The notes under the pieces were generated by a model that did no database searches, was not told where the DNA came from, and was given only the letters and a program-made list of their open reading frames with translations. The position numbers and the translations under genes are program-made. From IMG/VR virus record IMGVR_UViG_3300005613_000042, positions 64,001-74,290 of that record: a stretch of DNA of 10,290 bases; one strand, 5' to 3'. The stretch is from a virus (taxonomy: Duplodnaviria > Heunggongvirae > Uroviricota > Caudoviricetes). This document shows positions 5,799 through 6,374 of the stretch, one piece after another; the stretch's first letter is position 1; every line of letters begins with the position of its first letter.

Positions 5799-6374
5799 AT
5801 GGCATTTACATTTGGGCCAAGACTTCAAACACCCCAATTAGGGTTATTATACAACTGGTATACAACATCAGATGTTCGAGATATTGCACCAACAGATTGG
5901 AGAGTGGCAAGTGATAGTGATTGGACTACTTTAGAAAATTATTTGGGAGCAAACCCTGGAACGCAATTAAAACCACCAAATTCATTTAATGCTTTATTTG
6001 CAGGTCTTAGAAACGCCTCCGGAGCTTATATTAATCTTAACACCCAGGGGTATTGGTGGACATCTACACAAGATTCATCTACAAATGGTGTGGCTAGGAA
6101 TATTGGTGGGGGGAATGTTATCAATAAATACACATTTTACAATAAAAATGTTGGGTTATCAATTCGATGTGTACGCGATAACCAACCACCATCATCTATA
6201 GTTATTGATAGTGATAACAATACTTATACATGGACTAAAATTGGTTCACAATATTGGTTAGCACAAAATTTAGCAACAACCAAATACAATAATGGTGATT
6301 CGATCGATGGTATCACATGGCCATCTACATTAGGCGCATATTCATATCCCGGCGGAGACTCATCACTTGTATGA
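5799..6374 (+). CDS. Fib_succ_major (FISUMP) domain protein, circularly permuted
   Basis: GLLYNWY, IAPTDWRVASDSDWTTLENYLG, FNALFAGLR, GYWWTST and GLSIRCVRD are hallmark FISUMP motifs. The normally N-terminal block (IDSDNNTYTWTKIGSQYWLAQNLATTKYNNGD...GAYSY) comes after RCVRD. Confidence 0.88.
   Translation: MAFTFGPRLQTPQLGLLYNWYTTSDVRDIAPTDWRVASDSDWTTLENYLGANPGTQLKPPNSFNALFAGLRNASGAYINLNTQGYWWTSTQDSSTNGVARNIGGGNVINKYTFYNKNVGLSIRCVRDNQPPSSIVIDSDNNTYTWTKIGSQYWLAQNLATTKYNNGDSIDGITWPSTLGAYSYPGGDSSLV

Follow-up and report, generated by a model that had tools for sequence, protein, structure and literature searches.

Circular permutation of a FISUMP domain in a T4-like phage and in a phage-associated subfamily of related domains

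A 191-amino acid protein encoded on a T4-like phage contig contains a FISUMP (Fib_succ_major) domain in which the two halves of the canonical domain have exchanged places, a true circular permutation. The DNA analyzed here (the window) is a 10,290-nucleotide stretch of a Caudoviricetes record from IMG/VR, from an uncultured freshwater phage (IMGVR_UViG_3300005613_000042, positions 64,001 to 74,290) and forms the end of a 74-kb viral contig that is 42% complete. The window protein is a member of a large subfamily of permuted domains that is associated with phages. Most likely, it is a single folded permuted FISUMP/CLec domain that functions as a virion adhesin of a T4-like aquatic phage, with a face that is diversified without a DGR. 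The features of the gene and its immediate neighbors are listed in Table 1.

Table 1. Features of the permuted FISUMP gene and adjacent genes in the window
Feature	Position	Strand	Basis
Permuted FISUMP (Fib_succ_major) protein gene, 191 aa	5799..6374	+	ORF and PF09603/TIGR02145 profile matches
13-aa leader, MAxxxGPR type, low model confidence	5799..5837	+	
Canonical C-terminal block, now first (Pfam model 50-187 on aa 14-126)	5838..6179	+	
7-residue linker, old C-terminus to old N-terminus	6180..6200	+	
Former N-terminal block of the canonical domain, last in this protein (aa 135-191; Pfam model 2-28 and next segment)	6201..6371	+	
Fast-evolving stretch aa 69-119, presumed ligand-binding face	6003..6155	+	strain variants and subfamily alignment
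LamG-type gene in variable slot	5062..5760	+	
641-aa gene, same leader type, kept beside permuted gene in close strains	6396..8321	+	

Two swapped blocks in one open reading frame

The PF09603 profile matches the whole protein with an E-value of 9.9e-30 in two stretches, one of which places model positions 50-187 on aa 14-126, and the tail alone is matched by model positions 2-28 on aa 147-173 (E 1.8e-5). TIGR02145 gives the same picture, with model positions 45-176 on aa 13-127 and positions 6-29 on the tail, and the scores for both profiles exceed the curated cut-offs (104.6 against 33.9 bits for PF09603 and 62.7 against 41.65 for TIGR02145). These are the two partial profile matches in inverted order that a sequence-only reading of this DNA had predicted. 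Both Pfam blocks lie within a single open frame, with no stop between them. The colinear N-to-C motif order of FISUMP domains does not hold here, model positions 50-187 preceding 2-28, and because of this inversion we file the protein as a FISUMP variant. The linker is spanned by Logan contigs from four studies, and the same gene is present in four further assemblies, so the swapped arrangement is no assembly artefact.

The in silico rejoining that the same reading called for yields an uninterrupted profile match. When aa 134-191 are put in front and the product is compared with an HMM built from canonical homologues only, a single continuous match (model positions 1-104) extends across the join with a gap of about 2 residues; that is, the blocks are swapped and, this gap aside, nothing is missing or duplicated. 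A rotation scan with the canonical-only HMM is best at residue 139. The earlier reading had two swapped blocks separated by a cut directly after the tyrosine of the GAYSY motif; the swap stands, but the cut lies eight residues further on. Because these residues, the last of which is V191, form the helix found before YGLLYNW in canonical domains, we place the cut at the end of this helix.

Like the known FISUMP proteins (PF09603, TIGR02145), the window protein contains all the motifs of the family and the same predicted secondary-structure blocks. Unlike them, it has these blocks in reversed order and new termini before GLLYNW, is missing a loop of about 30 residues, and is encoded by a phage. 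It also has no signal or lipoprotein peptide, starts with a 13-aa polar leader, and contains only one Cys, whereas in FISUMP proteins a lipoprotein signal and paired cysteines are frequent, being typical but not defining (PMC5758913). The missing loop, which follows the second helix (5958-5981 in the window), is present in most relatives and is absent also from protein P0003, so that these two represent a minimal form of the domain.

Predicted fold and the position of the cut

The AlphaFold model of the permuted protein, made from 29 permuted sequences, is a single compact domain (mean pLDDT 80.6, pTM 0.81) in which the linker is predicted with confidence; the model of a canonical homologue (93.8) has identical secondary-structure blocks in the opposite order. 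In structure comparison of the canonical and permuted models, CLec-type structures occupy nearly all of the top 50 rows. The canonical model aligns with CLec-fold structures over residues 27-227, starting at residue 27-40 (for TvpA, Z 9.7 over 157 residues, rmsd 3.7). The alignment of the permuted model is confined to about residues 15-128, losing the first 17-20 residues of the lectin domains (for TvpA, Z 4.8 over 105 residues, rmsd 4.2; for Bd2740, Z 6.1 over 78 residues, rmsd 2.5). Overall, the PDB Z-scores are middling. These model-to-PDB alignments suggest that the permutation cuts inside the CLec core and that the first strand hairpin of the fold resides in the moved block, aa 135-191, along with the helix normally preceding YGLLYNW. 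An alternative position of the cut, on the margin of the lectin core, was dropped after the structure search with the canonical model. Taken with the inverted profile matches and the clean rejoining, the alignments of the structure models bear out the initial proposal of a true circular permutation.

In the CLec topology, the first strand pairs with the last strand. The old termini would therefore be adjacent, and a 7-residue linker is long enough to connect them. In the arrangement that we envisage, this linker would join the old termini, and the new termini would be located in the loop region that separates the first strand from the first helix. By model alignment, the window protein appears to share its fold with TvpA (2Y3C), Mtd (1YU0), the C-terminal domain of Lcl (8Q4E), Bd2740 (8OKS) and the Bacteroides pilin tip (4EPS), with the variable face in the same strands, but all these proteins are colinear with the canonical model, and the DGR targets end in their variable stretch, which is internal in the window protein.

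The sequence of the 191-aa protein has no match in the PDB or in PHROGs, and a Foldseek search of the PDB gave nothing significant. The ESM Atlas contains one full-length match, a 56-member cluster that is 100% viral (TM 0.88 over residues 5-191), and its bacterial clusters align over residues 7-128 only. In BFVD, the permuted model is matched twice with TM 0.82, and the pattern is reversed with the canonical model. Thus, the full-length structural matches of the permuted model are viral entries only.

Phage association of the permuted form

The sequence-only reading implied that the permuted order is rare and suggested a search for homologues with the same order in viral metagenomes. The search was productive, and the order turned out to be common among the phage members of the family. 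The same block order is found in 27 proteins that match at least 92% of the query, and permuted units, whether single, double or triple, are frequent in IMG/VR. About 20 of the 66 distinct phage ORFs among the best matches of a canonical query are permuted, as against 2 of the 110 ORFs from bacterial genomes among the matches listed for a query with the permuted alignment; both figures come from ranked samples of best matches and are no census. In a reciprocal search, two of the three FISUMP entries of BFVD are permuted. The family as a whole comprises tens of thousands of 50% clusters, and its top multi-domain matches are mostly canonical. Carriers of permuted copies include T4-like, crAss-like and tape-measure-encoding phages, and in the GenBank phage OP947161 the permuted copy adjoins virion genes.

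The closest counterparts of the window protein (UniProt A0A6J5N676 and A0A1B1IUD2, RPMD05_88 of OP947161 and the 56-member viral cluster of the ESM Atlas) have the same block order and match it colinearly over the full length, differing in that they are longer carriers or start with other leaders. Permuted entries in the databases are annotated merely as FISUMP or hypothetical, with the permutation unremarked, and profile searches mislabel such proteins as partial or fragmented domains. A search of the accessible literature found no description of a permuted FISUMP or CLec domain. Circular permutation is also known to occur naturally in methyltransferases and in other carbohydrate-binding modules (cited in PMC4444583 and PMC7824862); these are rearrangements of the same type in other folds.

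Among cellular genome bins, permuted copies were found only at L143:4355-15331, within a 3659-aa protein with weak Ig-like matches, and at L141:1502-2287, on a contig of 5 kb, possibly a phage that was binned wrongly.

Origin and further rearrangements

Canonical tandem domains with short C-to-N linkers exist (5 residues in P0241, 6-9 residues in P0235), and the linkers of permuted domains have a mode of 7 residues. Duplication followed by trimming is therefore feasible, and an origin by this route is plausible. The tandem-domain ancestor suggested by the earlier reading is in keeping with these 5-9-residue linkers, but no specific ancestor was identified. Block order is strongly clustered on the tree, with 14 changes compared to 94 after shuffling, and free trees require 6-14 changes of order. 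The window protein falls within a 30-member permuted clade in trees that are poorly resolved. The AU test does not reject one clade that contains all permuted units (p 0.54), and on this ground we dropped the claim that the first cut had several origins. No sister lineage of the clade of the window protein held up across FastTree and IQ-TREE: P0156, a four-repeat canonical protein of Bacteroidota type, took this position in FastTree (0.92) but not in IQ-TREE.

A second cut point was detected in three phage contigs (L042:8294-8974, L043:8816-11014 and L054:8900-12004), where the permuted domain begins with the HPRW motif, has its C-terminal end after the second helix, and is embedded in long phage proteins. 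It follows that permutation occurred at least twice in the FISUMP family. Canonical FISUMP domains of two loci (L073:3705-4247 and L095:4524-5084) contain inserts of about 180 aa near the first cut site, and similar gaps are seen in L089, L099, L105 and L119. The region of the first cut thus accepts large inserts, indicating a permissive surface site. The start of the L073 insert matches model positions 44-117 of Lcl_C (E 9e-5), and this insert itself looks permuted. The arrangements found also include tandem NCNC, CNCN and CNC, and the nested CCNN; the last is seen in P0239 (419 aa), where one permuted domain sits inside the linker of another.

A broader scenario, which we put forward tentatively, is that aquatic phages have rewired the FISUMP/CLec domain into an adhesin toolkit, with at least two different permutations and, in addition, forms that are nested or inserted. 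Such domains would be nearly restricted to phages and would have been selected because moved termini change the presentation of the binding face on fibres and capsids. Should this scenario be correct, it would represent a natural circular permutation inside the core of the CLec fold that had not been reported before. The CLec fold is known to tolerate massive sequence variation; the permuted domains indicate that it also tolerates rewiring of the chain, in a form that phages use often and bacteria almost never, and they map natural permissive sites for new termini. The window gene is one of many permuted members and reveals no new function or mechanism; its interest lies in the evolution of folds in phage adhesins.

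The variable face and competing explanations

Among close strains, aa 69-119 contain 15 non-synonymous and 3 synonymous variable codons, compared to 13 and 12 elsewhere in the gene, an excess that reaches p 0.05 in the Fisher test with few strains. The same stretch also shows the lowest conservation in the subfamily alignment (0.33 against 0.84 for the N block, the best conserved part), and single samples can contain several variants that differ by indels. This variability fits a virion adhesin with a binding face under diversifying pressure.

The permuted protein would reside on the virion of a T4-like aquatic phage and bind a ligand there, most likely in the role of a small accessory module for adhesion or receptor binding, and aa 69-119 would diversify through ordinary mutation, through indels and through exchange among strains. 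Alternatively, a DGR might target the gene at an internal variable repeat, with the RT and template repeat encoded in the unassembled part of the genome. FISUMP domains are recorded as DGR targets (PMC4159848, PMC5758913, PMC8143477), and targets can be distant (PMC8143477); the contig is incomplete, the variation clusters in the stretch equivalent to the VR, and the third base of NNY is kept in 12 of 15 changes. However, NNY changes occur at a similar frequency outside the stretch, and the strain variants show indels and third-position changes. No RT was found in the 74-kb contig or in any of the 48 contigs with permuted copies, 10 of which are at least 90% complete, and no template repeat in the 74 kb or in any permuted locus, whereas the same tests, applied to a canonical locus (L055) as a positive control, recovered a template repeat with 87% adenine mismatches adjoining an RT. 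We consider this alternative highly improbable, and the DGR connection drawn in the sequence-only reading found no support. Contigs with mostly canonical copies encode an RT in only 2 of 48 cases, so the lack of an RT is no feature of the permutation as such; the difference from 0 of 48 is not significant (p 0.49), and we make no claim that permutation excludes DGRs. The locus L055:9953-13086, in a viral contig, is itself a DGR that consists of an RT, a template repeat and a canonical FISUMP target.

The domain could also be a relic of a trimmed tandem array, in which a C block and the next N block form no single domain or complete each other between chains, as a domain-swapped oligomer. CLec phage adhesins are often oligomers and the tandem and nested arrangements described above exist; against this stand the trimming of the ends to within 2 residues of a full domain, the strong conservation of the N block compared to the variable face, the compact monomer model that is confident across the linker, and the recurrence of identical termini in 27 homologues, which together make such a relic quite improbable. 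A single folded domain might, alternatively, have its role inside infected cells, for instance as a binder of the host-surface or immunity type. In bacteria, FISUMP proteins occur as surface proteins that are secreted or lipoproteins, and some phage copies lie outside structural modules, but the 13-aa leader contains no signal peptide, the gene is in a late-gene context, and relatives are fused to fibre proteins; we regard a role of this kind as unlikely, and virion display as the better reading.

Leader and genomic neighborhood

The MAxxxGPR start is shared by three consecutive genes (5062, 5799 and 6396), is found in no other ORF of the contig, recurs in close strains, and is possibly a virion docking peptide. 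The sequence-only reading held that the permutation had freed the N-terminus for this leader. Other permuted homologues carry many unrelated leaders or have the domain inside long proteins, and canonical phage copies carry short leaders too; the leader is thus a local addition and no consequence of the permutation. Derivation from the GPxIVTxGLVL arm of LamG type was also considered and dropped, this pattern being unmatched in the loci.

Upstream on the contig lie T4-like terminase, portal, head protease, major head and adaptor genes, and the neighbors of the permuted gene are LamG, DUF285 and repeat-rich genes. In close strains, the permuted gene and the 641-aa gene stay while the upstream slot (5059-5798) varies: it holds the LamG gene here and an Lcl_C-like gene in L001 and L230, and is empty in L229, where the junction coincides with the shared ATGGCA start. 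Relatives of the permuted gene are small stand-alone genes, sit at fibre ends or are inserted within collagen-repeat proteins, and homologues are located in structural modules or inside collagen-repeat fibres. Two homologous loci lie outside obvious structural modules or on the strand opposite to their neighbors, so display on virions may not apply to all members.

The product of the 641-aa gene gives weak glycoside-hydrolase-like leads in the ESM Atlas only (0.77). The large gene at 788-2737 looks like a virion enzyme of glycoside-hydrolase type, with a weak DUF5060 match, and a 758-aa gene contains tandem repeats of about 60 aa (3569-4437). At 9187-9661, there are 25-aa DUF285/PARCEL repeats, in a gene with a GC content of 45-48% compared to about 35%.
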